A stretch of DNA of 63,144 nt, filler included, from Folioceros fuciformis (Eukaryota): the NCBI GenBank assembly GCA_049999805.1. It is 24 parts of 24 records of this genome, joined end to end, with 100 filler letters (N's around TTAATTAATTAA, not from the genome) between each part and the next. Parts side by side here need not be neighbours in the genome. Positions count along the whole stretch, not along the records: positions 13,748 to 16,868 come from JBNGIO010004786.1; 23 more parts are not named here. One strand, written 5' to 3'. The notes below the pieces were generated by a model. It did not search any database. It saw nothing but the letters and a program-made list of their open reading frames with translations, and was not told the DNA's origin. Positions 1,577 to 61,759 of this stretch are shown here, piece by piece; position 1 is the stretch's first letter, and each line of letters begins with the position of its first letter. The position numbers and the translations under genes are program-made.

Positions 1577-1864
1577 TCAAGAGGAGAAGAAGGAGAGGTC
1601 CTGCTCCACATCTACCAATTTCTTTGCTTTAGTGATGCTGGATGCTACGCGCACTTTGCTGATGAAGACGTAGTGTAGCTTTTCTACCAATCTGTGCAAT
1701 TTGCAGACCTGATGTTCTAACTTAGCAAGGTCTGATTTTGGCAAATGATTTTTAAGATCAGGACTTAAGTAACTTAATTTAGAGATCGGCTTGTGTTGAT
1801 GAGAGTGACAGCAACAAGTGCGCCTGTTCTGGGTAGCCGTGCGTGGGCGCGTGAACGGAGATTC
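1577..1864 (-). pseudogene. Stop-free frame between PBS and gag; extra 5' ORF remnant
   Basis: Manual translation: ...QNRRTCCCHSHQHKPISKLSYLSPDLKNHLPKSDLAKLEHQVCKLHRLVEKLHYVF...LVDVEQDLSFFSS*. No ATG in frame. Confidence 0.45.
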
Positions 1865-7939: not shown

Positions 7940-9186
7940 AGCCTGCATGATCAAAAGTTAAGGTGAAGGTTCTCATCTTCATTAACCAACTAACCAAAAT
8001 TAGGTTCTTGACCATGGCAGGTACATGCAAGACATTTAACAATGTTACTTCTGACTGATCGCTGAGAGTAAGAGAAACTGAGCCTCTTCCAGCAACCTTG
8101 AGTCCAGAGTCGTCTCCGAGAATTACAAAGGTGTCAAAGGGTATGGTATCGTACGTACTAAAGAAAACTTGTGTATGGCAGATATGAACCGAAGCACAGG
8201 AATCCAGATACCACCCAGTGTGATCAACCGGATTTCGGTTCAGGCATACGGCCATGATGCCTAGTGAAGAGGACATTGGCAATCTATTTCCAGAGGATGA
8301 GGAAGCAACATAAGCAGAGGGTGAGCACCCTTTTTGAGGAAGCCTTGAGGCTTTCTTCCTGCATTCATTTTCCCAGTGGCCTGGGATGCCACACCAGTTG
8401 CAATTACCTTTTGTCTAGTGTTTGCTTTTGGCTGTGGCGGTCGTTGCTACCTATCTAACCTTGGTTGAAAAGGTTTTCCTCTACTTCGCCCTCTGCTAAC
8501 ATACATAATTCTTGTTGGCTTGGAACTAGGTCCTACATCGTAGCGAGTAGTGTTGTCTTGGATAAAAGCGGAGATTACTTCAGTAAGTACTCCATCAGCT
8601 GCTTTTGCAGCAATGCCTCCTTTCTTGAGTGCTTGTTGGGCATCTCTTATCCTGGGATTTTGGGAGGTTATAAAGTCATGATAACTAGCAGGCAAGGTGT
8701 TGAGAAATACCGCAGTTGCTCTGACTTCATCAATTTTCCAGCCTGCACTGGAGAGTTTTGCTCTTGTAGATCTGAAGGCAGAGATATGTCCTTGCACAGT
8801 TCTTACTCTTTCATCCTTAGAGAGAATAGGTTTCTTACGGCAACTACCATTGTTCCCAAGTCTTCAGATTGATAGAGGTTGGAAAGTTGTGACCATGCTT
8901 CGACAGCAGTGGTAGTCCCATTCACTTGATGGATCATGGACCTTTCCAACCCAGCTAGGATGAGTTTCCTAGCCTTCTTGTCAAGCTTTTTCTAAGTATT
9001 CACTACTTGCTTGTTCGAGCCGGTAGGATCAAGTTCGACCTTGGGCACCGTGCCATCAACGATTCCCATCAGGTCTGCCTCATCTAGAATAGAGACCATC
9101 CTAACCACCCATGTGTCATAATCAGAGCCATTGAATCTGTCACGATCTTTGATGTCCACATTATAATTGTAAACTATGGTCGTCAT
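7940..9186 (-). mobile_element. Decayed Copia gag-zinc knuckle-protease
   Basis: DIKDRDRFNGSDYDTWVVRM; FLNTLPASYHDFI; CNWCGIPGHWENECRKK; protease WYLDSCASVHIC; LHVPAMVKNLI. Stops and frameshifts present. Confidence 0.92.
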
Positions 9187-9236: not shown

Positions 9237-9587
9237 TCAGCCTGAATGGCCTGGGCGGTTGTGTCTACGCCTTTGCCCTGTTTGTGCAGGTATAGTTGGA
9301 AAACTATGATCTAGTACCAACATCAAAGCCATCATCCTTGATTCTAATGATGATAGTCTAGAATGGTAAGACCCTCTAACGTGAAAGTTCAGTTCACGCT
9401 GACTACTCTCTACATCAGTGAAACGTCTCTCAAGAATGTTGATGGATTCTTGGAGAGAAGTGATGTGTAGGGAATCACCCTGCAATGATCTGAGTTGTTC
9501 TAACTGTTGTGTATGATTTCTACAGGAACACGAGGTGTAACCAGTGCACCTATTCTTGTTTCTAGCCATCATGGAACGAGTGCCCAA
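9237..9587 (-). CDS. Extra 5' ORF of Copia element (Cys motif plus coiled coil), unknown function
   Basis: 116 aa lying between PBS (9721) and gag ATG (9186): CTGYTSCSCRNH then ITSLQESINILERRFTDVESSQ...RLSSLESRMM. Confidence 0.55.
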   Translation of the reverse strand: MGTRSMMARNKNRCTGYTSCSCRNHTQQLEQLRSLQGDSLHITSLQESINILERRFTDVESSQRELNFHVRGSYHSRLSSLESRMMALMLVLDHSFPTIPAQTGQRRRHNRPGHSG

Positions 9588-9720
9588 TGATGCTAGGAAT
9601 AAGATGTGTGAACAACATTTGGCAGAGAATAATTTGCCTCAAGAGCTGCATCAGGGTCGTTGTTCAAAGAACTGAAATTCTAGGTCGTCCATATCATGAG
9701 AATCTTTAGGAAGACCCGCT

Positions 9721-9732: not shown

Positions 9733-9957
9733 TCTCGATAATTTTGACAGAATCACTTTATTACATCTGAATGTGTGTTACAAGAGAGAGAATCGTTTGA
9801 GCAGTCATGAAACTGAAGAGACACGGGATGCACAAGGTGCTTGTGAAGAGGTGCGTGTAAGGAGACATGCCCTTTCACCTATAGGCCTAATTAATTAAGA
9901 AAATAGAACAACGAAACGTGCCCTAATACATGGAGTGATGAGTGCGCTACTCCAACA
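9733..9957 (-). mobile_element. Copia 5' LTR (~225 bp)
   Basis: Adjoins the PBS, starts TGTTGGAG on minus, and abuts the tandem array. Confidence 0.7.
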
Positions 9958-10412
9958 AGGCAGACGCCGTAATAGAAGAGTGAAGGGGAAGAAGTGAGAC
10001 ATGGTGTGATGAGGCGGACGCCATAATAGAAGAGTAAAGGGGGAGAAGTGAGACATGGTGTGATGAGGCGAACGCTGTAATAGAAGAGTAAAGGGGGAGA
10101 AGTGAGACATGGTGTGATGAGGCGGACGCCGGAATAGAAGAGTAAAGGGGAGAAGTGAGACATGGTGTGATGAGTTGGATGCCGTAATAGAAGAGTAAAG
10201 GGGGAGAAGTGAGACAGGGTGTGATGAGGCGGACATCGGAATACAAGAGTAAAGGGCAGAAGTGAGACATGGTGTGATGAGGCAGACGCCGTAATAGAAG
10301 AGTAAAGGAGGAGAAGTGAGACATGGTGTGATGAGGCGGACGACGGAATAGAAGAGTAAAGGGGAGAAGTGAGACATGGTGTGATGAGGCGAATGCCATA
10401 ATAGAAGAGTAA
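9958..10412. repeat. 53-54-bp tandem array (~8.5 copies) in the 5' internal region of an Athila/Tat-like element
   Basis: Unit gacgccgtaatagaagagtaaagggggagaagtgagacatggtgtgatgaggcg, head-to-tail with no spacers. Confidence 0.95.
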
Positions 10413-13595: not shown

Positions 13596-13971
13596 CTGCT
13601 CAGTTGGCAAAATTCTGGACATTAAATGGGTGCGGGGTGAGAGGTAGNNNNNNNNNNNNNNNNNNNNNNNNNNNNNNNNNNNNNNNNNNNNTTAATTAAT
13701 TAANNNNNNNNNNNNNNNNNNNNNNNNNNNNNNNNNNNNNNNNNNNNGTCTTTTTCTTTGAAATCAGTTGATACGTTCATCACATTTATCACTGGTGCAA
13801 CTGAGGGAGTAGTCATCGACATGGGGTTACTCGTTCCTGACATAATATTATCTGTGTCTTGAATATATATTTAAGCAAGCAAAGTGTTATAACACAAGGC
13901 TTAGGATAAACATCAATATAAAGAGCACAAGATAATTTATGAATATATATAAATGTAGGTACTTGAGATCC

Positions 13972-15474
13972 CTAATCAGAACTGGACTCCATACGACGAA
14001 CAGTTTCAACTTCGTTGACTAAGTTAGTGATAGACTCCCAAAGTTTTAGATAATGGTGAGAACGTTTCTCAAAAGATGAAGCTTGTGCTTGGGTCTTGTG
14101 GTCCTTATAATCCTTATAAGCTGATTGGAGGGTCTCAAAGGGGGACGGAGGAGAAACTAGTTCCTCCTTAATACGAACTGCCACTGTTGTGGAAGGTGCT
14201 TGAATTTTTAAAGTGGACGCCAGGGGCATGCACCGCATAGTAAGAAGTCGACGAGGTTTTTCTTCTTGAGAAACTCGTCCAAAGCTGCTTGCCAGGGCCG
14301 GTGCTTGGGGCGCGCCTCCCGTGCGTGAGGTGGTTACTCCTACCACAATTGGCGCGCTGCTGTGATCAGAAAGAACACCCGAATTTAGAGCATGCCCTTC
14401 CTTTAGATCTGGACGAGCATCGCTTGAAGCAAGCGCGCTTTGCTAATGAACAGGCGCGCGCTGGAAATTAGGGGACGCCCAAGCAGGATCTGGACAGGCG
14501 CCTCTAAACTTGACAGTCGCGTCGGGAATTGGAGCCGGATCAGAGCGCGCGATCAGTTCTTTGATTGGCGTGCTCTCCAGCGGAGGAGGCGCGACTCCCC
14601 TAATTGCAAACGCGCCTCCCAAATCAGCAGTCGCAGCCTAAAATTGGAAGGGCGCACCGCCTGAATTTGTGGGCGAGATCTGCTGATTCATGGGCGTGCC
14701 TCCTTTGCAAGCTGTTGTTTCTCTTCGAATCTCATCTGAATGACCTCCACACATGCACGGGTGATGTGCACAATTGTGGTCACCTCCCGCGTGTAGAGGC
14801 GAAAGGGGAATTTCTTCGTTTTCCTTAATTTCCTGTTTTATGCAACATTCCAAGTTGGTTAAATTATTGTCACTTAACCTCCTGAATTGATTTGTGTTGT
14901 GTGCAGTTGTCTGCAGGACCAAAGGATCCTCCTTATCACGTCGATTTATAGGAACTCCATAAGCATTACGATGTCTTGTGTCTCTCAAGGACTGTTTTGT
15001 TCTTGTAGTTACAATAATTTCATCGTCGCTTTCCGGCCAAGTTGAAATTTGTGAATGAGAATTTTGGTCGGATAAAAGGGGCAAGCACGTTGGAGATCTT
15101 TGTCTTGTGGTCCGTGACGAGTTCCCTCCTCGTAATGAAGAGGTGTGACTATGTTATACTTTGGACGGTTGTGTCCAGCCTTGATTTTCAAGTGTAAGTA
15201 GGAGTTCCTTCAACCATTCTTCTCTTAGGAGTCTTGGAGGTGCATTTAGGGAATTGTATCCACATCCTCTTGAAGTGTTGAAGTTGTGGCTACGTCCTCG
15301 TTGACGCTCCTTTTCCTCATGATATCGACGGGCTATATCATAGGCACGTCTATTCCTTGCTATGTTGATTGAGTTGGTATAAGAAACAATGTAAGAAAAG
15401 CAATAAAAGAGAATGAAATGGAAAAAGGCGTTTGTGACTCCTCTTTCCCCATTTCCTCCTTTATAAGCCATCAA
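13972..15474 (-). pseudogene. String of unknown ORFs downstream of a truncated Met PBS (retroelement 5' accessory region)
   Basis: ORFs 15154-15474 (hydrophobic FFHFILFYCFSYIVSY), 14638-15084 (HNCAHHPCMCGGH) and 13972-14346 (coiled-coil-like end). No gag motif seen. Confidence 0.4.
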
Positions 15475-15662
15475 CTAAACCCTTTACAATCTCATCCTTG
15501 AGAAGGTAACTAAAGGGGCTAGTTTTAAACATAAAAACAAAAAACAAAAGAAACTTCATTTCCTTTTATTTTTGTTTAATTACTCTATCAACATAAGTGT
15601 TGATTATAAATGAGCCTGCATACTCTAACCATGGTGTCTGCACACCATGGAAGAGAGCCATT

Positions 15663-15672
15663 GCTCTGATAC
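15663..15672 (-). promoter_or_regulatory. Truncated tRNA-iMet PBS, interrupted by an LTR insertion
   Basis: gctctgatac is followed directly by tgttgag instead of ca. Confidence 0.65.
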
Positions 15673-15857
15673 TGTTGAGATAATTAAGTATCAATTATTC
15701 ATTGCGTTATACTTAGATAAGACAAACCCTAAACGTGACGGTTTTTTGTTACAACCGTTCACAAGACATGGATATATACATATATCAGAGTTGGTCTTCG
15801 AACGTGTATTTGATGTGATCGAGTATAGTAGCTCGTGTAAATCCATGAAACTTTACA
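15673..15857 (+). mobile_element. Copia 5' LTR (185 bp)
   Basis: TGTTGA...TTACA with internal TATATA, immediately followed by the PBS. Confidence 0.8.
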
Positions 15858-15869
15858 TGGTATCAGAGC
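15858..15869 (+). promoter_or_regulatory. tRNA-iMet PBS
   Basis: TGGTATCAGAGC directly after CA. Confidence 0.95.
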
Positions 15870-16003
15870 TCCTAGTTGCGATCCAATGCCCACGAGTTTT
15901 CCTTGAGTCATGATTAGCTTTTCCTCAATTATCCATGGAAATTGCTGGTCCTTATTTGATCAATTTTGGAATGTTGGGCATGGCCTGATGCGCCGTAGGC
16001 ACT

Positions 16004-16564
16004 ATGCCTCGAAAGGATGTAGGCAGGAAGTTTCGGATAGATGCTGCTGAGAGCAGCAGATCTAGGCCGTTTCTAAAATCAGATGCGCAGCGGTTTGTTG
16101 AAGACTTTGAGCATCTCTATTTCAAGAAGTCTCAAAACCATCAACAAGAAGAAGAGCGGGCCAGGTTCCTGAATTTGTTTGTCAGATCCTATCACCCTAT
16201 TTCTTTTGGCTCACAGAATCTTGCGCAAACACACATTTGCAGGTCTACTGGGCTCATCCAGTCTGTCCTTGACTCATCTGAGTTTTGTAATGCCTGCAAC
16301 CCTAATCGCAGCACTGATGATTTCAGAAATTATCACATTCTTCTAGATTCTATGCTCACATTGAAAACATCATCCCTCTCAATCTCAAGTCGCTTAGATG
16401 CCCTCACCAGGTCCCTAACCATGCGCTTGGATACTCTGGAAAAGAAGCTTGAGTCCTCTCTAGTGTCTGCAGTAAGTGTAGAATTAGAGGTGAAGAAACA
16501 CGTTCGTGACATCAACAGTCTCAAGGATGCCCTCGCTACCCTGAGTGTTTCCCCCTCCTCTTAA
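16004..16564 (+). CDS. Extra 5' ORF of Copia element (186 aa; CxxC plus coiled coil), unknown function
   Basis: Intact ATG-TAA between PBS and gag: FCNACNP then LSISSRLDALTRSLTMRLDTLEKKLESSL...VRDINSLKDAL. Confidence 0.68.
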   Translation: MPRKDVGRKFRIDAAESSRSRPFLKSDAQRFVEDFEHLYFKKSQNHQQEEERARFLNLFVRSYHPISFGSQNLAQTHICRSTGLIQSVLDSSEFCNACNPNRSTDDFRNYHILLDSMLTLKTSSLSISSRLDALTRSLTMRLDTLEKKLESSLVSAVSVELEVKKHVRDINSLKDALATLSVSPSS

Positions 16565-16584
16565 CCTTCATAAATTCAGGCATC

Positions 16585-16868
16585 ATGGCTCAACCTTCAG
16601 ACACTGTTTCTGATAGACTGCAAGACAAGGATCAACTCACTTCGACCAATTATGATGCCTAGTCATTTAGGGTGAAGTGTATACTAGAGGAGAAACTTTT
16701 AATGGATGTCACAGATGGAACTATACCTCAGCGAATTGCTGGAGAGGACTTTGGCTCTCTTACACCGGGTGGCATTCATAAGAAGCTGTGGATCATGAAA
16801 GAACAACTGGAGTGGGATCAAAAGGATCGAAAGGCTCGAACAATTCTTGTGGGATCTGTATCACAAGA
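16585..16868 (+). mobile_element. Copia gag N-terminus (one internal stop)
   Basis: MAQPSDTVSDRLQDKDQLTSTNYDA*SFRVKCILEEKLLMDVTDGT...WDQKDRKARTILV. Confidence 0.85.
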
Positions 16869-34150: not shown

Positions 34151-34754
34151 TTAGTCCATCTATTGTGAGCATATGTTGAACAGGAAGGACAAGCATTAGG
34201 CTCAGCAAACTTATATCTATTGTTTGTATTTTTCACAGATTTCATGGCAGCTGAACGAAACACAGGGTAACGTAAGAGCTCTGCCTTCAATAAGGTTTGA
34301 AGTTTGAAATCTATGTGCCTAATTTGTTCCTGCACATCTCTTACATCTATGCTCACAGTGGAAATAGTTCTGTTTGTATGTGCATAACGCCTATCAATAA
34401 TATACTGTACTGTGAGTGTGATTCAATTCTCTGAGCCAACTGACTTACAGAAATGTGTTGTGCAAATTGCGCTGTTAGAAAATTGTTAGGGTTACCAGCT
34501 ACTTCTTGAGGGCGTGGGCGTCCCCAAGGAATGGATTCAAAGGCCAGGTATTGGAAATCTGGATACAACTTTTCCACAATTGTGTTGAATGCCCATTCAA
34601 GCTCTATGATTTGGGCAGGCCTGTCTTGATTTCTGTAGATCCATTCTTGGGCTCTTTGATCAAGCCTTTCTGAAATGCTTCTCTCTCCAGCCCTCAAGGG
34701 ATTGTGGCACTCAGCATAAGGTCGCCGTTGGTAGCCCTCTAAATTTTGTGCCAT
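34151..34754 (-). CDS. Unknown ORF(s) downstream of a Met PBS (two frames joined at ~34355)
   Basis: 133-aa ORF 34353-34754 overlapping a second frame SIDVRDVQEQIRHIDFKLQTLL...NACPSCSTYAH. Confidence 0.55.
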
Positions 34755-35088
34755 CTGAATGGCAAGAACTTTGATTGTAAGAATAGGAATACATTCTTCT
34801 TATTCTGAATTTATAAATCAATTTCAAACGCTTATTTTCATGATCTGACATGTGTCCTAGCGGACCTTTATCAGAATTGCTAAAAGGTCTGCTAGGAAAT
34901 TTTTCAGGTTTATAAAATCAAGCAAATAAATTCAAATAAACAATCAAAGTTTAGTTTCTTAAATGTGTTTTGTTTATATTTTCAAGAAACATTTTCTTGA
35001 AAAGATATGAACCAAAACACATGTTTGTGCATATCTAAGTATGCACAATTTGATGTGCATTCTCTAGAATGCAACCAACACCTCTAAA

Positions 35089-35100
35089 GCTCTGATACCA
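35089..35100 (-). promoter_or_regulatory. tRNA-iMet PBS
   Basis: gctctgatacca, exact. Confidence 0.9.
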
Positions 35101-45568: not shown

Positions 45569-47700
45569 GTGCTCGTGGAGAGGGGTGCGAGCATGTGTGG
45601 AACCCTAAGTCGGGCGTGTGAGGGCGAGTTGTGGCGTTGGGAGCGTGCGGAAGGGGGTTGGGCATAGGTGTGTGGGTGGCGTGCTTAGACTTGCCATGGC
45701 CTTGCCCAGGTGCGCCGGGGGCTGGGGATCTTGAGAGCAGGCAACTGGATAGGCCAGGAGTAGGGCCAGGCTTGGCCGGATCCTGGTTGGCAGGCGGGCC
45801 GACTTGCTGCTGTGGGGCTCCCGACAGGCCGGCTAATCGGTGGTTGCAAAGCTCCGCTGGGTTCAACAGGCCGGGGTGACCACAAGATGGCTCCAGGCAG
45901 GGTAGTAGGAGGGAGGCCTATTGCGGGTAGCTAGGCTGGCTGCTTGGCCGAGGCTTGGAGCCAGCAGCGGCCGGCTGTTCGGCCAGCTGAGCTAGTCGGC
46001 TGGTCAAGGCTGGAGGCGGAGGCGGGCTGCGAGGGCCTGAGCGATCTGGCCAGTTGGCTGGACTGTGGCCAACTGGCGGCCTGTCGACATCATGGGGACC
46101 GACCAGCAGCAGGCAGGCAGCCAGTGTGCCAACGGATGGTGGGTGATGGCCGGCTGAGGAGTCTCGCCGGCAGCAGGCAGGAGAAGACGGCTATCTAGGC
46201 CTGCTACCTGGCAAGATCCAGGAGGGCAAACCGCCATTGCAAGGCGGCCCGGAGGGTGGCCGGACCAGCAGCGGCCCGGTGGTGCGACCAGCCGGTCGGC
46301 ACCAGCTGGTTGCATTGGCGGCACGATGGCAGGGGCCTGGCCATCGGGTCCGGCTGCCTTGTGGCCAAATCCAACCAGCCAGTAGACCGGCCGACTGATC
46401 GAGGATGGGCCAAACAGGGCTGGACGGCCAGGTAGCAGCCAGGCGGGTCGATGGCTGGCAATCCTGTCTAGCTGAGGGCAGGCACGTAGCCGCTGCAAGC
46501 GGCAGACCCAACCAGGCAACAAGGTGGCATTCAGGAGCACTCAGTGGAGGGTTCATGGCAGCCCGGTGGTGGCGTTGCGTCCAGGCCGGGGAGCGGTGCC
46601 GGATCCAAGGCGACTGGGGCTGGACCCGGAAGCCATGCACCATCCTGGCTGCAGGAGCCCAAGCAGCCAGGTAGGCTAGCCTGGCCTCTAGGCGGGTGAA
46701 TCTAGCGGGCAGCCAGGCCGAGCAGGTTGGCCGCATGGCTGGATCTGAAGGCCGGAGGTCGGCTAGTGGCCTCTGGCCAGTCGGCCCAGACAAGCGGGTG
46801 GTCAGATCCAAGTCGGGCTGACCAGCAGGTGAGCCCAAGCATGCGTAGTCAGGTTGGTAGGGGGGGCTTGCTAGATTCGGCTGGGAAACCAGCCAAATCT
46901 AGCCAGCCAACAGGCTGGCTAGACGGTTGGCCAGCGGGCTCGGGTGGCCCTGACTAGATCAGGTGCTGGCGGCAACGCGGTGTCCAGACCTGGGAGTGGG
47001 CGGGCGAAGTCAGTAGGGTTTAGGGTTTAGGCTGAATCCGGAGGCCGGCTGGCAGCCTCTGACCAATCGGCATGGGCAGAAGGAGGTTGGCGGAGCTAGG
47101 CCAAGGCCAGGGGCAGGCCAGGAAGGCTGGTCAAGGTTGGTTGGCTGGCCGGATTCGGACCAGCAGCTGGGGCAGGCCGTGGGGCGGCGGGATGGCCGGA
47201 TCGCCAAGCAGCCGCCGGGCGGCTGGCGGCCGGCTGAGGGAACCCCAGGCAGGGGGGGAAATCCAAGCCAAGCCCGGCCGCTGGGGACCAGGCAGGCGGA
47301 TCCTGCCAGTGGGGACCATGCAGGCGGACAAGGTTGGCGGATCCAGCCAGCCAGGAAGGCTGGTGGCATGGCTGGATCCGAAAGCCAGCAAGGCTGGTGT
47401 GTGGCCTTGGTGCACATGGCCGGGCTGGCATGGGAGGCCGGCTGCATGGGAGGAAATCCAGGCAAGAGGGCGGCCTGGGTGAATCGGTTAAGAGGGGGTG
47501 TGCGGCCAGGCTGGTAGGTGGATCCAACCGGGCAACCAGACAGCCGCCTGGCTTGGGGAGGATTGCGGCGGCCTGGCTGGATCGCCAGGCAGGCCGTGCT
47601 AGCCAGCAAGTGAGGCTTAGGCTAATGGCAGGTTGGTAGGGAGACCTCGGTGGGGTAGGGGCTGTAGGAAATTTCCAGAGTGATCCGTTGCTGCGACAGG
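45569..47700. repeat. GC-rich, G-skewed degenerate repeat region
   Basis: Same texture as 1-1061; contains gggtttagggtttagg at ~47016. Confidence 0.55.
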
Positions 47701-48581
47701 GGAGGCTCACCACCATCCTTGGGCGCCCTAGTAGCCTTTCTTCCCTGAGTGAATTCAGCCACAAATTGTCGGCTAGCACGTCCTCTAGTCAATTAATTTT
47801 GCACTCTTCTATCTGGGCTTCCTAGCCCCAAATCACGCTTCAATTCACAAATTTTGTTCTTTTGATAGACCTAAGACTAATAAGAAGAGAAGGCCTCGAC
47901 TGAGCACTCATCCCTGGGCATGAATTTTTGAGAACGGGAGAGTAGTGCCTCTAATTTGTGTGGTCGAAGATTATAGCGGCTTCAATACTGTTTATGATAT
48001 ATAGGTCCACACTCGGAAGCAAGCAAGTGAAGACCCATCACTCATAGATGTTATGCTATCAGAACTCTGAAGTGAAGCGTCCCACACACGGAACAATACC
48101 TGGATGGGGACCTGGCAGAGATCTGATAATTTAATTCTAAACCTTCTAGTTCCTTTTTCTTTTAGAAATTCTATTTTCTAATTAAAAACTCTAGATTAGG
48201 CTAGCATTTTAAACTACCTAAAAGAGTATTTTAACGATGCAAACCTTTCGATCTAGATTTGCTTGCTTTTAACTTATGCAAATTCTAAACTATTTGCTTT
48301 TAATAAGAACACTTAGATTGACGAGACAAATCTAGAGACCTTGAAGCCCATCATGTAATCAAGAATTTGCTTCTTTATACAAAAAATGATTACAAACACC
48401 TAAGACTCACATCTTGGATTATTGAAATCCTCAATGATCTTTTGAAGTAAATTTTCTTATCCTTTTTTTTTCTTTCTTTATAAGACTTGTATCTAGAACC
48501 ATTGTAGTCCCTCATACTTTTCAAAAAAGCACAAATCTAGAAATAAGGAAGAAATAGCTAGCAAGTCCATGGAGGATCATT

Positions 48582-48819
48582 GCTTTGATACCAAGTTAGA
48601 GATGCCATGCGGAAGCAATTGCCTAGAACGTGCTTTCTAGCAACTATATTAAAAGTTATATTAAAGGGTTCATAAGTAGGTCTTTTATAGCGGTTTAACA
48701 AAGGGGTGTGTCCTTTCAACTAGCTTGTTAGTTAACTAACTACCATTTATAACTAGGTCTAGTTAGACTAACCAAAGTGACACAGAATCACGTGGTCTGC
48801 CTTATTTCCAACTTCAACA
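48582..48819 (-). mobile_element. Met PBS variant (48582-48593) plus 5' LTR (~48594-48819), inserted in Copia gag
   Basis: gctttgatacca; LTR likely starts TGTTGAAG where gag homology ends (RMRENEV). Confidence 0.7.
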
Positions 48820-52357: not shown

Positions 52358-53083
52358 TGTGAAAGAGTGCAACTCTAGCCCACTAAATTAGGCATACCGT
52401 TTGTGACGTTTCATATAAGACATGAAATAGTTTCTGTTGTATTTTCTAACTACTTCAATTATGAAAAGCATGGTGTGCAAGTCTCGTACGACTTTTGCTT
52501 TGTCACTCGGTATCAGAGCCTGCATATGTATGGGCTCTAAATGTCCATAATCTCTGGATGCCTGATCTGCCAATTGGTCTATGCCTGATCTGCCAATGTC
52601 TATGATGCTGCGCATCGCGTGCGCGCTGTTTGCTTCTCCTGTTGACTTAAAAAATGACTAGAAGACGGAGAGTCGCATAGTGTGTGGCCCCTCCCATTTC
52701 GCAGCTGCCAAGGGAACAATCCCATAACAATTCTCACAGGAATTGGGTGCCTCCACAACATGATCAAGGGAGGGTCACTGCCCATCAAAATTGGGTACCC
52801 CGTGCTAGGGAACAAGGTAGGACAACTCTCTCTCTGAAGTTCTTAGTGAAAGGAGACAGTTTCTTAGTTGGGAGAATCCTAACAACAAAATTGTGAATGC
52901 ATGATGAATGGAAGATAAGAAGGAGCGGAAAGGTAAGCAGCAAATTCGATATGAAAGATATAGGAGAGCTGAAGTTCTGTTTGGGAATTCAGCTGTTACG
53001 TGTCAGGATAGAAGGACTGCTGATAATCCACCAATATCAGTATGTGCAAGAATTATTGCTGAAGTTTAAACTTGAACAAGCAC
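52358..53083 (+). mobile_element. Short LTR (~52358-52505), Met PBS variant (52508-52519) and a Copia RT fragment (~52930-53083)
   Basis: cggtatcagagc; SKFDMKDIGELKFCLGIQL only ~410 bp after the PBS. Confidence 0.7.
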
Positions 53084-56100: not shown

Positions 56101-56859
56101 TGCAGCCACAGAAAATCTCAAGGCAGCTTTCTGGGTTGAAACAAAACTCTGATAAGGGGGAGGAAGGCTGGACAGTAGCTGAGCAACCACTTCGTTCTCA
56201 GTAAGTACACTGCCCAGAGAAGCTAATTGAGCTCTTAACACCCTGAAGCGACTAATATGTACAGCAACAGAATCTCCTTCCTTCATTTTCAAAGAATGGA
56301 ATTCCTTCCTAGCAGCAACCAGAGTAAGGATGTTCTGCACCTGATAAGTTTCTTTGAGCTGATTCCACACTGCTGCTGCAGACTCTAAGTATTCAACTTC
56401 TGTCACCGTGGCTTCATCCAGGCCAGATAGAAGAATAGCAAAGGCAATTTTGTTGCCTTTGTTCCACATAGCAATCTCATCAGCAGTTGGTTGGACTGGG
56501 GCTGATGCTGGAGTCTTGCGAGGATCAGGTAGAGTACCATTAACGTACTCCCACACATCCCGTGCATCCAGGTAGGCCTTCATCCAAGCTCGCCAACCCT
56601 CATACCTGGTTGGTTTTCCATCGAACCGATCCTTTTCTTTGAACTCTCCTCCATAGCCACCAGGAACAGTAGTAGGAATAGAAGACGACACAATCGTGTT
56701 AGCCATAACTGCGGCTAATTGAGGTTGTGCTAACTGAATTGCCACTGTGACTTGTGAGGGACGGTTCAATAAGCCTACATCGTCAACAAAGTCTGATGCT
56801 AAGACTAGCCGGGCTAAAGACTCAGACAAAGAATCAAGATCTAAGTCGTCCTCATCCAT
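53184..56859 (-). mobile_element. Copia gag-protease-integrase-RT, interrupted by a solo LTR
   Basis: [66 protein letters not shown]. Confidence 0.97.
55314..55589. mobile_element. Solo LTR (276 bp) with 5-bp target site duplication TCGCA
   Basis: Termini TGATGA...TCATCA; TCGCA at 55309-55313 and 55590-55594. Removal restores VYVGDARGVVVKG. Confidence 0.93.
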
Positions 56860-57091: not shown

Positions 57092-57634
57092 TCACAGCGG
57101 AGGCTTGTCCCAGTGACGCTTGGGCATAGGCGCATGTGATACAGGATACGCCTTGCCAGATCCTTGCAACGGGCAGGAGCAGACACGAATTGCTGATGAA
57201 GCTTGTACCAAGGTGCTATCTTCACCAAAAACTTCAATCAATTCAGCAATTCTGACCGCAAAACTGTCTAACCATGTCTCATGTTTGATCTGGTTGTCCA
57301 GCGAACGCCTGAGGAGGAACTCAATGGATTCAAGGCGAGAAATTAGTGTCGATAGCACGACGTCAGATACTTTATGTTTGAAAACTTTGCGAACAACTTT
57401 GCTTGAATGAAATCCAGTATGTTGTAGCCTCTTAGAGTCACCAAAGTAATTTTGTCGTACAGGGTAGCCACCCCGTCTACTGACTCGATCAGGCCTACTG
57501 AAATCACAGCGGTGTCTCCACAAAAAACTGAGGCAGCAAATCCTCATTAAGCCACCTCCCGCCTCGTGCCATCGAACCAGCAACTCAAAATCATCAAACA
57601 CTAGAATGAATTTTCCCTTGAATTCCTCATTCAA
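57092..57634 (-). CDS. Extra 5' ORF of Copia element (180 aa), unknown function
   Basis: Lies between PBS (57805) and gag (56859): LSTLISRLESIEFLLRRSLDNQ...RIAELIEVF...VCSCP. TTG start in the ORF track. Confidence 0.5.
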   Translation of the reverse strand: MNEEFKGKFILVFDDFELLVRWHEAGGGLMRICCLSFLWRHRCDFSRPDRVSRRGGYPVRQNYFGDSKRLQHTGFHSSKVVRKVFKHKVSDVVLSTLISRLESIEFLLRRSLDNQIKHETWLDSFAVRIAELIEVFGEDSTLVQASSAIRVCSCPLQGSGKAYPVSHAPMPKRHWDKPPL

Positions 57635-57804
57635 AAGAAACTAAACACAAAAGCATCTATATGAGATGTATATTTCCAAGCATATATAGACACAGCTTAT
57701 ATATGCACAAATGTCAATAACCAAGGACTAGAGAAACCATGACTAGTACTCAACAGCATTTTTCAAGGTCCAAGGAATTTTTGTGTCTAAAAAAAAAGAC
57801 CATG

Positions 57805-58021: not shown

Positions 58022-58648
58022 GCGAGCTACTTGGAGCCTTAGTGCTGAGTGGTGTGAGAGGGAGTGAATGATTTATAAGTGGAGAGCTGCGGAGTGAATA
58101 GACGAGATTCCTTTTACCCTGCGTAAGGAAGGGGGTGTAACTGGTTTGTATATCTAAACTAAAACATAAAGTTACTACCTAATATCCGTCGTATAGTCGA
58201 GTGGTCAGAAGCACCAGTCTGACAGCCCGCCCACAGGTATTACAGGACGGCTCACCCCTTCAGGCAGGACGGCTGACGGTTCACCCCTTCAGGCTGCTGC
58301 GGTCTTACATACGTATGTACAGTGTACCCGGCAGGGGATCTGTCTAGACGATACTTTTGTGAGAGTCATCTTCCGTCAGCGGTCCCTGAACGATGGCCAC
58401 AGTATGGCAACCGGACCTGTTGTGGACCCAACAAATTGGAATTGGTGTGCGTACAAGGACTCTGCCAGGAACCCCCGCTCACCTCAGCTTCGGGAGTGAA
58501 CCCTTTGCAAACAAAGGCTCCAGGTGCAGCAGTGTCAGGAGCCCAGCANNNNNNNNNNNNNNNNNNNNNNNNNNNNNNNNNNNNNNNNNNNNTTAATTAA
58601 TTAANNNNNNNNNNNNNNNNNNNNNNNNNNNNNNNNNNNNNNNNNNNN

Positions 58649-59696
58649 CCGAGATGATCTTCACCTTTTCCATGTCGACTTGCAACCCCCTGGCTAAAAC
58701 TCTATGGGCTAGCAAGATACCCTCCGTCATGCAAAAGAAACACTTCCCCGGATGCAACTTGAGGTTAGTCTCCCTACACCTCTGCAAGCACTTCCTTAGC
58801 TGTTCCAAGTGTAGGTACCTCCTTCCAAAGACACAAAAGTCATCCAAGAACACCTCCATGAACTTCCGAAGGAACTCCTTGAAAATGGTATTCACCACCC
58901 GCTGAAAAGTTGCCGGAGCATTGCAGAGCCCAAAAGGCAACTTGGTGTAGGCGTAGGTCCCCCAATCAGTTGTGAAAGTCGTCTTGTCGCGATCCTCCTC
59001 CCTCAGTGTGATCTGATTGTAACCTGAATACCCATCTAGGAAACTGTACATCTCATGTCCAGCAACTGTGTCCAACACACTGTCCATGAAAGGGAGTGGA
59101 TGATGGTCTTTCTTGGTCGCCTCATTGAGCTTCCTGAAGTCCTGGCAAACCCTCACCTTGCCAGCTTGCTTCTTAGGCACCACCACAATTGGAGCTACCC
59201 ACTCACTAGTTAGGACAGGATAGATGACTCCAGCCTCCAAGTACTGATCCAACTGCTCCTTCACAACCATGGAGTACTTTGGGTTCAATCGGTATTGCTT
59301 CACCCGAACCGGTGTGCTTCCCTCCTTGAGATCTATCCTATGAACACCCAGCTCCTCTGGAACACTTGTCATGTCCGTCACCTTGAAGGCAAACACATCC
59401 AAATATTCAATCAATAGCGCCTTCAAACCTACCTTCTCCTTGGGTGTGAGGTACTTGGACACCTTGACCTTCTTCCCTGGGGTCAACTCCATGTCCTCGA
59501 CAGCATCGGGATCCACGTAAACTCCTTCGGGACTACTCCCTACACTTGTTCCTGATCCTTCTTCTGGGAAATCATAGTCATAGGCTTTCCCCTTCCAAAA
59601 GGCAGCTCCTTCCCTTCGCTCTTCATCCTCCTGTGGATCTTCATTCTCCACCACTTCAGTATGGAAACAAGTCACCTCTTGATCCAAATCCACCAT
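58649..59696 (-). mobile_element. Ty3/Gypsy (Athila/Tat-like) reverse transcriptase, open frame
   Basis: WVAPIVVVPKK, RVCQDFRKLN, YSFLDGYSGYNQI, PFGLCNAPATFQR, VFLDDFCVFG. Confidence 0.97.
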
Positions 59697-61405
59697 CCTG
59701 ACAGTATGCCCTACTCCCTTGTAGGCTCCTGTACTACTGGAAGTGCTACCTCCAGTACTACCGGATGTGTACCCGGGAGATCGTCCTGCTGTTTCTCCCC
59801 CATAGGGAGCTTTGCTNNNNNNNNNNNNNNNNNNNNNNNNNNNNNNNNNNNNNNNNNNNNTTAATTAATTAANNNNNNNNNNNNNNNNNNNNNNNNNNNN
59901 NNNNNNNNNNNNNNNNTTCCCATTTATACGAAGAATCGGCCAGGATTTCTTCCCTCACATCTGTTGGCTTCACTGCAATTCAGCTACGCATCAGGTCGTC
60001 ACACACAATCTTGAACAGCGGTGCAGAATTTCAACAACATTTTGCAGTCATTATGCAGCCAAGGACTCACAAGTCGGAGTCGCAGATCTCCGAGGCTCCG
60101 TCACAGCTCGAAAATGGCTTCGAGGACCGAGCTCCCTTTGGACCAGGCAGGCAATACCACCACCAGTCTTCATGCATTCCAGGTCGTCCCCACAGTCCCC
60201 GGTCCCGGCCTCTTCGCCAGACCGTGCGATTTCGCGGCAGGGTCAGACTCTCCATCTCACGAGCCTTCATGCAGAAATGTTCATACGGAAGCTGCCAAAT
60301 TCTTTGGTGGTGGACAAAGAACCAAGAACAAGAAAATGAGCGAGAGTAGTGCTAGTGCTCACGCCCATCATCTGAGCCGTGATCGCTTGCGCCGTGATCG
60401 CTTGCGCGCGCAATCGTGATAGTAACTTCTCAGACACCGCCATCGGCGTGATAGTAACTGCTCAGACACACCGATGGCGGTGACAGAGTAGCGTACGTTT
60501 GTACCTTGTACATCAAACATGACATGAAGGAAGGCCGTACAGGTGGCTAAGCTAGGTGGGTATAGGGTACCCCAACTCAAATATTTGCTTCCTTTTTATC
60601 ACCTGCGGATCTTTTGAGTTCTTGTTCTTGTTCGTTTCGTTCGACGACGTTTGTTAACGGGACTCGCTTTATGAGGACACCGATCGGATTCAATTACTCC
60701 AATTCAGTTAAATTACTGCAGTCTGCCCTGCCCCTGCACCAGGTAGGTGCTGAGGTTCTCCGTGGTATTCGTATGCCTGGAACACAAGCAGTGCCCAGTC
60801 AGGCACTGCCCCCTGTTCTACAAAACTTCCGTAGGAAATGCACAAATTTGCTGTGCCATTAACACTATCTTAGTAAACAGCCTCCACTTTGGGTCGAGTA
60901 TTGTCTCAATCTATTTGCCACCAAGTGATGTAGGCAAGGCAAGGCAAGCATATAAAATAATGCTATCAGCACTAACAACATTCTCCCTCCTATGCAGCCG
61001 CCCGGGAAGTGAACATAGGAATGCTCCTGTGCGGACTTATCAACGTGAACGTACTCCGTATCAACCTTAGCGTGGATGGGAGAAGGCCTGAGACATACTC
61101 AGAAAAAAAAATGCCACAAGATGTGTCTGGCTTCTTCTTGTCTCATGCAATCAAACGGTTTAACGAGCCATGCTCTGCAAGCCACCGCCTCTCCAGACCT
61201 GAAGAGTGTGTAGAGAATCTGAAGTTCTCAGAAACCATCCTCGTGCACACCCATTTCCAGAGTTGTGGTTGCAAGCTTACACAACTCATGTTCCCTTCCC
61301 TCATCNNNNNNNNNNNNNNNNNNNNNNNNNNNNNNNNNNNNNNNNNNNNTTAATTAATTAANNNNNNNNNNNNNNNNNNNNNNNNNNNNNNNNNNNNNNN
61401 NNNNN

Positions 61406-61660
61406 CGGTGGAGCAGTATGGTGCGGTGCACTATGGTGGAGCGGTGTGGCCTGGGGCGGAACGGTGGAGCAGTATGGTGCGGTGCACTATGGTGGAGCGG
61501 TGTGGCCTGGGGCGGAACGGTGGAGCAGTATGGTGCGGTGCACTATGGTGGAGCGGTGTGGCCTGGGGCGGAACGGTGGAGCAGTATGGTGCGGTGCACT
61601 ATGGTGGAGCGGTGTGGAATGGTGGAGCAGTATGGTGCGGTGCACTATGGTGGAAGGGTG
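61406..61660. repeat. 56-bp tandem array (~4.5 copies)
   Basis: Unit cggtggagcagtatggtgcggtgcactatggtggagcggtgtggcctggggcggaa at 61406, 61462, 61518, 61574, then a shortened copy. Confidence 0.95.
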
Positions 61661-61759
61661 TGGCCGTATACGCAGGAGTGTTGTAGAGCATGGTGTAGAA
61701 TTGCTTGTAGGAATGGTATACTGGATGAAAATGGTATACCGACATGGTGGAGCAAGAAA

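Follow-up and report, generated by a model that had tools for sequence, protein, structure and literature searches.

A possible example of a 5' extra open reading frame in the leader of a probable Copia-type retrotransposon from Folioceros fuciformis

Introduction

Plant LTR retrotransposons can carry extra open reading frames (eORFs) on either side of gag-pol, and the proteins that these encode are highly heterogeneous (PMC6317226, in the portions cited here; PMC7264820). Those portions of the REXdb survey treat forward 5' extra ORFs as a named category, eORF-5'F; ORFs of at least 250 codons were counted, and the Copia eORFs came to 582 elements in 45 mutually dissimilar groups (Neumann et al. 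2019, PMC6317226). The lone Copia eORF singled out there is a 3' one, the env-like eORF-3'F of SIRE (Sirevirus), which evolves fast and falls into 19 dissimilar groups. Many eORFs of the OTA clade are reported in the same portions to encode a plant mobile domain, Transposase_28 or Athila ORF-1 (PMC6317226).

Small ORFs in the leader have been described in the MDG1 group of Drosophila elements (412, mdg1, Stalker and Blood), where sORF1 and sORF2 are translated and low dN/dS has been reported (PMC11952523). These ORFs read in the sense direction, occupy the interval from LTR to gag and are carried on the full-length transcript; their homology is undetectable by sequence. MDG1-type sORF2/FAST-like proteins have 63-107 residues (about 70 in sORF2), with an N-myristoylation start, a central transmembrane helix and a polybasic region. 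Ogre ORF1 lies upstream of gag, and the env-like ORF of SIRE has transmembrane features. The trimerisation helix of LINE-1 ORF1p and the virion-associated protein (VAP) of caulimoviruses are small coiled-coil partners of capsid proteins.

Results

The sequence analysed, here called the window, is a stretch of 63,144 nt from Folioceros fuciformis (NCBI GenBank assembly GCA_049999805.1). It is not contiguous: 24 parts from 24 records, contigs of 1.0-5.6 kb, are joined by N44-TTAATTAATTAA-N44 linkers. The element described here, element A, stops at such a linker 284 nt into gag. Because its contig ends there, element A is without pol, without a 3' LTR and without a lineage placement. Its features are as follows.

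13748..16868: contig carrying element A (JBNGIO010004786.1), 3121 nt, with an N44-TTAATTAATTAA-N44 linker at both ends
15673..15857, + strand: presumed 5' LTR, 185 bp, TG...CA, with a TATA-like run near 15775-15790
15858..15869, + strand: primer-binding site (PBS), exact 12-mer TGGTATCAGAGC, directly 3' of the LTR, tRNA-Met type
15870..16003, + strand: first part of the leader, with six ATGs (15886, 15910, 15935, 15971, 15980, 15988), all ahead of the start of ORF A
16004..16564, + strand: ORF A, the extra ORF, ATG and 186 codons plus stop, between PBS and gag and in the same orientation
16585..16868, + strand: gag fragment, 94 codons, with an in-frame TAG at 16660-16662 (codon 26), cut off by the linker

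Sequence inspection, a PBS search and ORF calling reproduced the order given in the preliminary description, namely LTR, Met PBS, an ORF of 186 amino acids, 20 bp and gag, at matching coordinates. Its statement that the extra ORF is free of stops while gag contains one was likewise borne out. The 5' edge of the LTR is marked by three public contigs that diverge upstream exactly at 15673. The blastn search found no second copy of the 15673-15857 LTR in the window, and this is the single LTR-like stretch on the contig. We take the 12-mer TGGTATCAGAGC to be a match to initiator tRNA-Met. Complete tRNA-Met is the primer in most Copia groups, according to the cited portions of the REXdb survey (PMC6317226). 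The PBS of element A is common to a related public family, in which the upstream sequence differs (place 15871). The gag fragment, 94 codons with one stop, matched DUF4219 weakly (E 9e-5, 22.6 bits, below the 27-bit cut-off).

The leader from PBS to gag is 715 nt long. TRF found no tandem array in 15870-16584, and no repeat accounts for the open frame. The leader RNA fold was not unusually structured (z -0.72) and a scan against Rfam gave nothing relevant in the leader; an explanation of the leader by RNA structure is thus unsupported. The ATG of ORF A is the seventh after the PBS. Since six ATGs precede it, its position is unfavourable for scanning ribosomes.

We found that ORF A is longer than its composition would predict. 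From stop to stop it spans 191 codons, starting at 15989, and this length was matched by 1 of 1000 dinucleotide-preserving shuffles of the PBS-gag interval (P 0.001); with plain shuffles, the longest sense frame of the interval was matched in 1 of 2000. Codon usage was scored with a model trained on the seven Pfam-confirmed Copia ORFs in the window. ORF A scored z 3.55 above randomly generated frames without stops that matched it in base composition, and 26 reference windows of true ORFs had a median of 2.83 (range 0.3-6.1). By length and codon usage, ORF A looks protein-coding.

The ORF A protein begins MPRK. It contains a CxxC at residues 95-98 and otherwise a single Cys, at residue 79. AlphaFold2, run on the single sequence, predicted one helix over residues 104-181, with pLDDT above 90 over about 130-180 and under 50 in the N-terminal 100 residues. 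The CxxC and a long helix after it agree with the preliminary description. The "heptad-like" character ascribed to that run did not hold up: hydrophobic periodicity at 3.5/3.67 residues was not above that of shuffled sequences (P 0.54).

The preliminary description also placed a Cys-motif/coiled-coil frame in the same slot of other elements, at 1577-1864, 9237-9587 and 57092-57634. Open sense frames of 95, 133 and 182 codons are present there, the 95-codon one within chance and without an ATG. We found a further frame, E, that the description did not include.

9240..9638, - strand: leader frame B, 133 open codons (111 from the first ATG, 9572); one-mismatch PBS at 9732-9721; gag ATG at 9186
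57095..57640, - strand: leader frame C, 182 open codons (151 from the ATG at 57547); PBS at 57816-57805; gag ATG at 56859
1580..1864, - strand: leader frame D, 95 open codons without an ATG; PBS at 2136-2125; gag ATG at 1490
34356..34799, - strand: leader frame E, 148 open codons; exact PBS upstream at 35100-35089; no gag on the contig, hence no superfamily

The length test covered five of the nine PBS-like sites in the window. Two of the four left out, 28896 and 24217, have just 91 and 146 nt downstream. At 52508 (one mismatch), the downstream frame of 62 codons resembles, by eye, a reverse-transcriptase fragment and is without gag; at 48593 (one mismatch), the downstream frames are proline-rich and of low complexity throughout. 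Against dinucleotide shuffles, sense-frame length gave P 0.001 for A, 0.006 for B, 0.001 for C, 0.317 for D and 0.001 for E. Thus, sense frames exceeded chance in four of the five testable leaders downstream of a PBS (P 0.001-0.006). All five antisense strands stayed within chance (P 0.14-0.95), as did the sense strand of all five control stretches of equal length upstream of the PBS (P 0.13-0.73).

Codon usage was coding-like in A and the short frame E0 alone (z -1.63 in B, 0.58 in D, 0.99 in E1 and 1.39 in C). Four ATGs precede the first ATG of B and eight precede that of C. From the stop of the leader ORF to the gag ATG the distance is 20 nt in A, 50 nt in B and 86 nt in D, with a frame step of minus one into gag in all three; in C it is 232 nt from stop to gag. 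Stops in all frames part the leader ORF from gag in B and C.

The leader ORFs did not resemble each other. No pair was similar in blastp (best E 0.14 in a database of six sequences), tblastn of the leader ORFs against the window gave nothing under E 0.08, and Pfam gave nothing under E 0.008 for the four other leader frames. No relatives of the leader ORF of element C were found, and its AlphaFold2 model was of low confidence (mean pLDDT 45.9). The P values for hydrophobic periodicity were 0.54 in A, 0.11 in B, 0.53 in C, 0.016 in D, 0.18 in E1 and 0.08 in E0. Because it was significant in one frame (D) alone, a coiled coil is unsupported as a shared feature. These results speak against one "same" Cys-motif/coiled-coil protein across the slots, and the theme of Cys plus heptads is statistically unsupported.

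We searched for relatives of ORF A in several collections. None of 1.84 billion representative proteins matched at E 0.001 or better, and neither the word-index protein search nor the search of metagenome, viral and prokaryote contigs returned a relative. Pfam gave a best E of 0.2, to unrelated families, with no plant mobile domain, Transposase_28 or Athila ORF-1. In the ESM Atlas, recognition was 1497, under the 2300 reached by most real families, and the best score was 0.83, which one in three shuffled proteins attains. An Atlas cluster with Tnp_22_trimer in 15% of its members scored 0.76, which is chance level. The best match among PDB sequences, eIF3 subunit j (eIF3j), was rejected as a relative: at E 0.045 it lies beyond any accepted threshold and aligns helix on helix. 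The gag of element C, which is bona fide (Pfam E 3.5e-34), also went without a match in the word-index search and the metagenome contigs, so the blanks for ORF A weigh little. These two collections seem poor in relatives of Folioceros fuciformis. In the open-access literature, taken without per-lineage eORF lists, we found no described Copia 5' ORF of the kind of ORF A.

Public contigs that align with element A bear on whether the frame is kept among copies. Three places in ORF A are affected.

16214, + strand: nonsense site at ORF A codon 71, T for C in near-identical public contigs of runs X1 and X2
16191..16422, + strand: 232 nt skipped in an about 83%-identical public relative, ORF A codons 63-140 including the Cys residues
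16506..16593, + strand: 88 nt skipped in the same about 83%-identical relative (run X1), ORF A codons 168-186, the spacer and the start of gag

The skip lengths, 232 and 88 nt, are each 1 modulo 3. Elsewhere in this relative, all 8 gap letters fall in 15909-15930, before the ATG of ORF A, and there are 0 in 16004-16190 (ORF A codons 1-62). One of the near-identical public contigs carries a 9-nt in-frame duplication, which, like the placing of the gap letters, speaks for a coding ORF. Nothing from run X4, presumed by guess to be RNA, aligned with the element, an outcome without bearing on expression. The refuting observation named in the preliminary description, a frame not preserved among copies, is thus partly borne out: the frame is interrupted at codon 71 in the nearest public copy, and neither of the stretches skipped in the relative is a multiple of three. 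On these grounds a maintained gene is unsupported. The preliminary description had proposed a fast-evolving 5' accessory gene, for instance a silencing suppressor or a particle/movement factor; none of the present results bears on silencing suppression or movement. A coding-like leader ORF, as judged from four of five leaders on the sense strand only, from the ordinary stretches upstream of the PBS and from the codon usage of A, survives from that proposal; maintenance does not.

ORF A resembles the eORF-5'F category in its position upstream of gag, its forward orientation, its freedom from tandem repeats and its protein without known domains, and the proteins are heterogeneous between elements. 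However, its 186 codons (191 from stop to stop) fall below the survey minimum of 250. With the env-like eORF-3'F of SIRE it shares a probable Copia-type host element and an extra sense ORF, but the SIRE frame lies between pol and the 3' LTR, whereas ORF A is a 5' frame between the PBS and gag. Like Ogre ORF1 and the OTA-clade eORFs, it is an extra ORF in the internal region; those elements are Ty3/gypsy, another superfamily than the Copia-type element A, and the domains typical of many OTA-clade eORFs are absent from ORF A. The MDG1 sORFs are also small, sense and placed between LTR and gag, with homology undetectable by sequence as for ORF A, but they belong to insect Ty3/gypsy elements. The MDG1-type sORF2/FAST-like proteins are unlike the 186 residues of ORF A with its MPRK start. 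The long predicted helix of ORF A recalls LINE-1 ORF1p and the caulimovirus VAP, likewise small proteins whose genes either directly precede that of the particle protein or encode it. In contrast to LINE-1 ORF1p, the Tnp_22_trimer score of ORF A (0.76) is at chance, and neither homology nor an RNA-binding domain was found for it.

Discussion

We tentatively read the region as the 5' end of a Copia-type LTR element, now dead, whose leader contains a lineage-restricted, fast-evolving ORF of the eORF-5'F kind, a reading to which we give slightly less than an even chance. The kind of eORF is already known; that ORF A is a lineage-restricted example of it in a dead copy seems to us nearly as likely to be right as wrong.

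The main competitor is that the frame has no function and that the leader is an ordinary long untranslated one, with ORF A a relic or by-product invisible to selection in a copy too young to have gathered stops. This would fit the want of relatives in any search, the dissimilarity of the leader ORFs of different elements, the six ATGs ahead of the start of ORF A, the nonsense codon in the nearest public copy and the skips in the relative that are not multiples of three. Half of the protein being unfoldable, the low Atlas recognition and leader D within chance point the same way. However, four independent leaders, each with P at or below 0.006 and each in the sense direction alone, are jointly beyond chance, the antisense and upstream controls being ordinary, and the codon usage of ORF A also speaks against it, at z 3.55 relative to stop-free random frames. 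We consider this explanation rather unlikely, if a serious contender. Alternatively, ORF A could be an N-terminal extension of Gag, one continuous protein in the active ancestor that was split in element A by a one-base indel. The frames of ORF A and gag overlap by 52 nt (16510-16561), with a run of five C inside the overlap and no canonical slippery heptamer seen there by eye, and the frame step is the identical minus one in A, B and D. The REXdb survey, in its cited portions, removed eORFs that are separate in some elements and joined to the polyprotein in others (PMC6317226). However, gag starts at an ATG of its own whose context is good (ATCATGG) and which lies as shortly upstream of the DUF4219 motif as is usual; between leader ORF and gag of B and of C every frame is closed by a stop; and no fused form occurs among the 1.84 billion proteins of any length. 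An extension of Gag is therefore distinctly improbable.

Translation of the leader could also matter while the peptide does not, if the open frame carries ribosomes through an ATG-rich leader to restart at gag, or shields the RNA. Selection would then act on openness, so that an open frame would be kept without sequence conservation. Open frames in four of five leaders without protein similarity, the short distances of 20, 50 and 86 nt from stop to gag ATG in A, B and D, and the abundance of upstream ATGs in the leaders are all consistent with this. However, the stop of C lies 232 nt from gag, the ATG of ORF A is merely the seventh after the PBS, and the gene-like codon usage of A is unneeded by such a model. 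In eukaryotes, moreover, ribosomes restart inefficiently once an ORF exceeds 100 codons, unless a dedicated factor is present. Taken together, we regard translation for its own sake as very unlikely. Least probable, far below the others, is that ORF A derives from a piece of a host gene that the element took into its leader by transduction. LTR retrotransposons are documented to transduce pieces of host genes (PMC7264820), and the weak eIF3j match (E 0.045) would be in keeping with it; but that match is helix on helix and above any accepted threshold, no relative turned up among 1.84 billion proteins, and no Pfam domain was found.

Copia elements are usually assumed to need gag-pol alone. A broader claim, which we think unlikely, is that several unrelated families of LTR retrotransposons in this genome maintain a long sense frame across the leader from PBS to gag, either for a hyper-variable accessory protein or as a frame open for translation itself, delivering ribosomes to gag. 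If a 5' ORF were indeed maintained in several families, it would add a player to expression or particle biology. Surveys with a threshold of 250 codons would then overlook a class of small leader ORFs, as was the case for the fly MDG1 sORFs. Should the frames be relics instead, element A is a dead retrotransposon of the ordinary sort, if one whose leader is long.

Under the reading of ORF A as a 5' eORF, it would be translated from the full-length RNA of the element, ahead of gag. The product would be a small protein, poorly ordered in its N-terminal half, with a long helix of about 60-80 residues at the C-terminal end that may self-associate. It may act on the element's own RNA or on Gag in particle assembly. 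As a long upstream ORF that stops 20 nt before the gag ATG, ORF A might also throttle translation of gag-pol. Element A and its nearest public copies would now be in neutral decay.

Anatomy of element A

The preliminary description had read the Copia-type element A (15673-16868) as an LTR, a PBS, an extra ORF, a 20-nt spacer and a gag interrupted by a stop codon. We found every one of these parts in its place:

15673-15857, +, presumed LTR, TG...CA, 185 bp (sequence)
15858-15869, +, PBS, exact 12-mer TGGTATCAGAGC (motif search)
16004-16564, +, leader ORF, 186 codons from its ATG (191 open codons counted from 15989)
20 nt, +, spacer from leader ORF to gag
16585, +, gag start, context ATCATGG
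16660-16662, +, in-frame TAG, gag codon 26

The 5' edge of the LTR is supported because three public contigs (runs X1/X2) diverge exactly at 15673; a related public family has the PBS in common with A and different sequence before it. Six further ATGs follow the PBS before that of the leader ORF is reached; the CxxC of this ORF is residues 95-98. The gag fragment matched DUF4219 with an E value of 9e-5 and 22.6 bits, under the 27-bit Pfam cut-off. Element A stops at the end of its 3121-nt contig (13748-16868) and is therefore without pol, 3' LTR or lineage assignment. The sequence 5' of the LTR (13748-15672) is also repetitive, with summed word depth in the public runs reaching ~150, and public contigs linking 15148-15169 with 15591-15604 on opposite strands suggest that other copies are arranged in inverted fashion. 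Neither of two minus-strand frames in this sequence (14638-15153; 13972-14442) had a Pfam match.

The 63,144-nt window contains 46 runs of 44 N around 23 copies of TTAATTAATTAA. These 23 linkers, N44-TTAATTAATTAA-N44, lie within 1062-61405 and act as six-frame stops. It is thus a set of 24 contigs, each 1.0-5.6 kb long, and no single genome stretch, and neighbourhood claims across linker points are meaningless. The further elements lie on contigs unlinked to that of A.

Long open frames in the leaders

We asked whether the open frame in the leader, the PBS-gag interval, exceeded chance. In the 715-nt leader of A, 191 open codons were matched once in 2000 plain shuffles and once in 1000 that preserved dinucleotides. 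Thus, the ORF is longer than chance. Across the whole window there were nine PBS-like sites with at most one mismatch, and five (A to E) were tested; the four excluded were two with <150 nt downstream and two one-mismatch sites without downstream gag.

Longest sense frame in each leader, its P value against chance, and codon-usage z of the leader frame
A: 191 codons; P 0.001; z 3.55
B (PBS 9732, -): 133 codons; P 0.006; z -1.63
C (PBS 57816, -): 182 codons; P 0.001; z 1.39
D (PBS 2136, -): 95 codons; P 0.317; z 0.58
E (PBS 35100, -): 148 codons; P 0.001; z 0.99
E, short second frame: z 2.77
26 true-ORF windows: z median 2.83, range 0.3-6.1

The antisense strands of the five leaders gave P values of 0.14-0.95, and equally long control stretches just upstream of each PBS gave sense P values of 0.13-0.73. 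Thus, the long frames are specific to the leader and the sense strand in four of five elements; E, whose contig carries no gag, is counted irrespective of superfamily. For the leader pattern as a whole, chance is excluded, and some link to translation is the simplest explanation. The leader frame is preceded by four ATGs in B and eight in C; that of D has no ATG.

Element E (34151-35100, -; exact PBS 35100-35089) is a fifth LTR-PBS unit, absent from the preliminary description. It has no recognisable gag within 938 nt of the PBS and has two open sense frames, one of 148 codons and one of 90 codons that runs off the contig with gene-like codon usage. Element B has a tandem array of ~54-nt units (9929-10412; seven overlapping 162-nt copies) that, on its sense strand, immediately precedes the PBS and presumably lies inside the LTR of this element.

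Coding signals and searches for relatives

We trained a codon model on seven Pfam-confirmed Copia ORFs of the window and scored each leader frame against random frames that had no stops and matched it in base composition. Only the ORF of A had convincingly gene-like codon usage. No tandem repeat underlies this frame, and the structure of the leader RNA was unremarkable (z -0.72). AlphaFold2 without an alignment gave its product a mean pLDDT of 58.9 (<50 in the first 100 residues) and a single predicted helix at 104-181, with pLDDT >90 over ~130-180.

No relative of this ORF was found in Pfam (best E 0.2), by word-index protein search, among 1.84 billion representative proteins of any length (none at E ≤0.001), in PDB sequences (best, eIF3j, E 0.045) or in metagenome, viral and prokaryote contigs; in the ESM Atlas (recognition 1497) the top score of 0.83 was at chance level. 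These blanks weigh little, because the leader ORF of C was likewise without relatives and, more tellingly, a bona fide gag from the window (Pfam E 3.5e-34) drew no match by word-index search or in metagenomes.

The leader ORFs were not similar to each other (best blastp E 0.14 in a database of six; tblastn against the window, nothing <0.08). The proposed recurring architecture holds for long sense frames in leaders and fails for a single protein type. The accompanying theme of a Cys motif followed by heptads proved loose: Cys patterns are unlike from element to element, only D exceeded shuffles in hydrophobic periodicity (P 0.016, against 0.54 for A), and the predicted fold of the C product is of low confidence (pLDDT 45.9). 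The lack of relatives, the dissimilarity of the leader ORFs, the looseness of this theme and the ATGs ahead of the leader frames speak against a maintained gene.

Copies in public runs

We aligned Logan contigs of public runs X1-X4 to the contig of A at ≥80% likeness; 40 of the 634 differences were listed individually. X1 and X2, two runs of one sample, contain 0.79 and 0.60 of sampled words. Near-identical contigs span 15856-16281 with two to three differences from A. In both runs they carry T at 16214, a nonsense change at codon 71, and in one of them 9 nt are duplicated in frame after 16161. Individual insertions of any retrotransposon can be expected to contain nonsense changes, so the one at codon 71 is uninformative on the active lineage.

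A relative that is ~83% identical over 320 nt, with 53 differences and 8 gap letters, retains 15871-16190 and 16423-16505. Skipped are the 232 nt of 16191-16422 (codons 63-140, including all three Cys) and, in X1, also the 88 nt of 16506-16593; each skip is 1 modulo 3, and other letters may stand in place of either. As read from these contigs, its different leader architecture counts against strict conservation. All 8 gap letters fall before the ATG (15909-15930) and none in codons 1-62, which hints weakly at constraint and may reflect one event. In X3 (same sample), C>T (111) and G>A (150) far exceeded all other difference types on 13748-16868. This excess fits bisulfite-treated or damaged DNA, so the X3 differences say nothing on copies.

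Interpretation

The observation on the leader ORF of A is real and beyond chance, and an accessory gene is a plausible reading. We tentatively favor a forward 5' extra ORF that is restricted to one lineage and evolves fast, seen here in a dead copy. Its translation would be from the genomic RNA, and the C-terminal helix of the product could self-associate and act on the RNA or the Gag of the element; the ORF might also dampen gag-pol translation. No specific function has support. That the frame is instead a non-functional relic is rather unlikely. An N-terminal extension of Gag that an indel has split would suit the 52-nt overlap of the ORF and gag frames around a C5 run, the identical frame step in A, B and D, and such cases met by the REXdb authors, in the available part of their text (PMC6317226); we consider it improbable. 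It is similarly improbable that the frame stays open only for the sake of being translated, its sequence being free, and a captured host gene is scarcely credible.

Plant LTR retrotransposons are known to carry extra ORFs on either side of gag-pol, in sense or antisense orientation (PMC7264820, in part). In the available text of the REXdb survey, the class is named eORF-5'F, and eORFs of at least 250 codons are recorded for 582 Copia elements and fall into 45 mutually dissimilar groups; the ORF of A, at 186 codons, is under this length and would therefore have gone uncounted. The only Copia eORF singled out in that text is the 3' ORF of SIRE, and per-lineage tables may list 5' ORFs for the relevant lineage (PMC6317226). 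The nearest functional precedent is sORF1/sORF2 of the Drosophila MDG1 group, which are translated and missed by homology searches. They occupy the same slot upstream of gag; they sit in insect Ty3/gypsy elements, and their myristoylation start and transmembrane helix were not seen in the product of A (PMC11952523, in part). Our search of open-access literature found no description of a Copia leader ORF like that of A. Pending the real genome, we place it in the known, heterogeneous group of extra ORFs.

Other features of the window

Pfam identified Copia-type gag, integrase or RVT_2 pieces on most contigs. Retrotransposon pieces make up nearly all contigs, and it may be that only repeats assembled. 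Amid the Copia contigs, a 423-codon open frame (58593-59864, -) matched RVT_1 (E 1.2e-26) and is a non-Copia reverse transcriptase. Downstream of the one-mismatch PBS-like site at 48593, the GC-rich region 46395-47792 is open on both strands in several frames of 160-230 codons that overlap each other, those of the minus strand being rich in proline; it looks like low-complexity sequence rather than gag. The last contig starts with a tandem array of 28-nt spacing (61406-61685).
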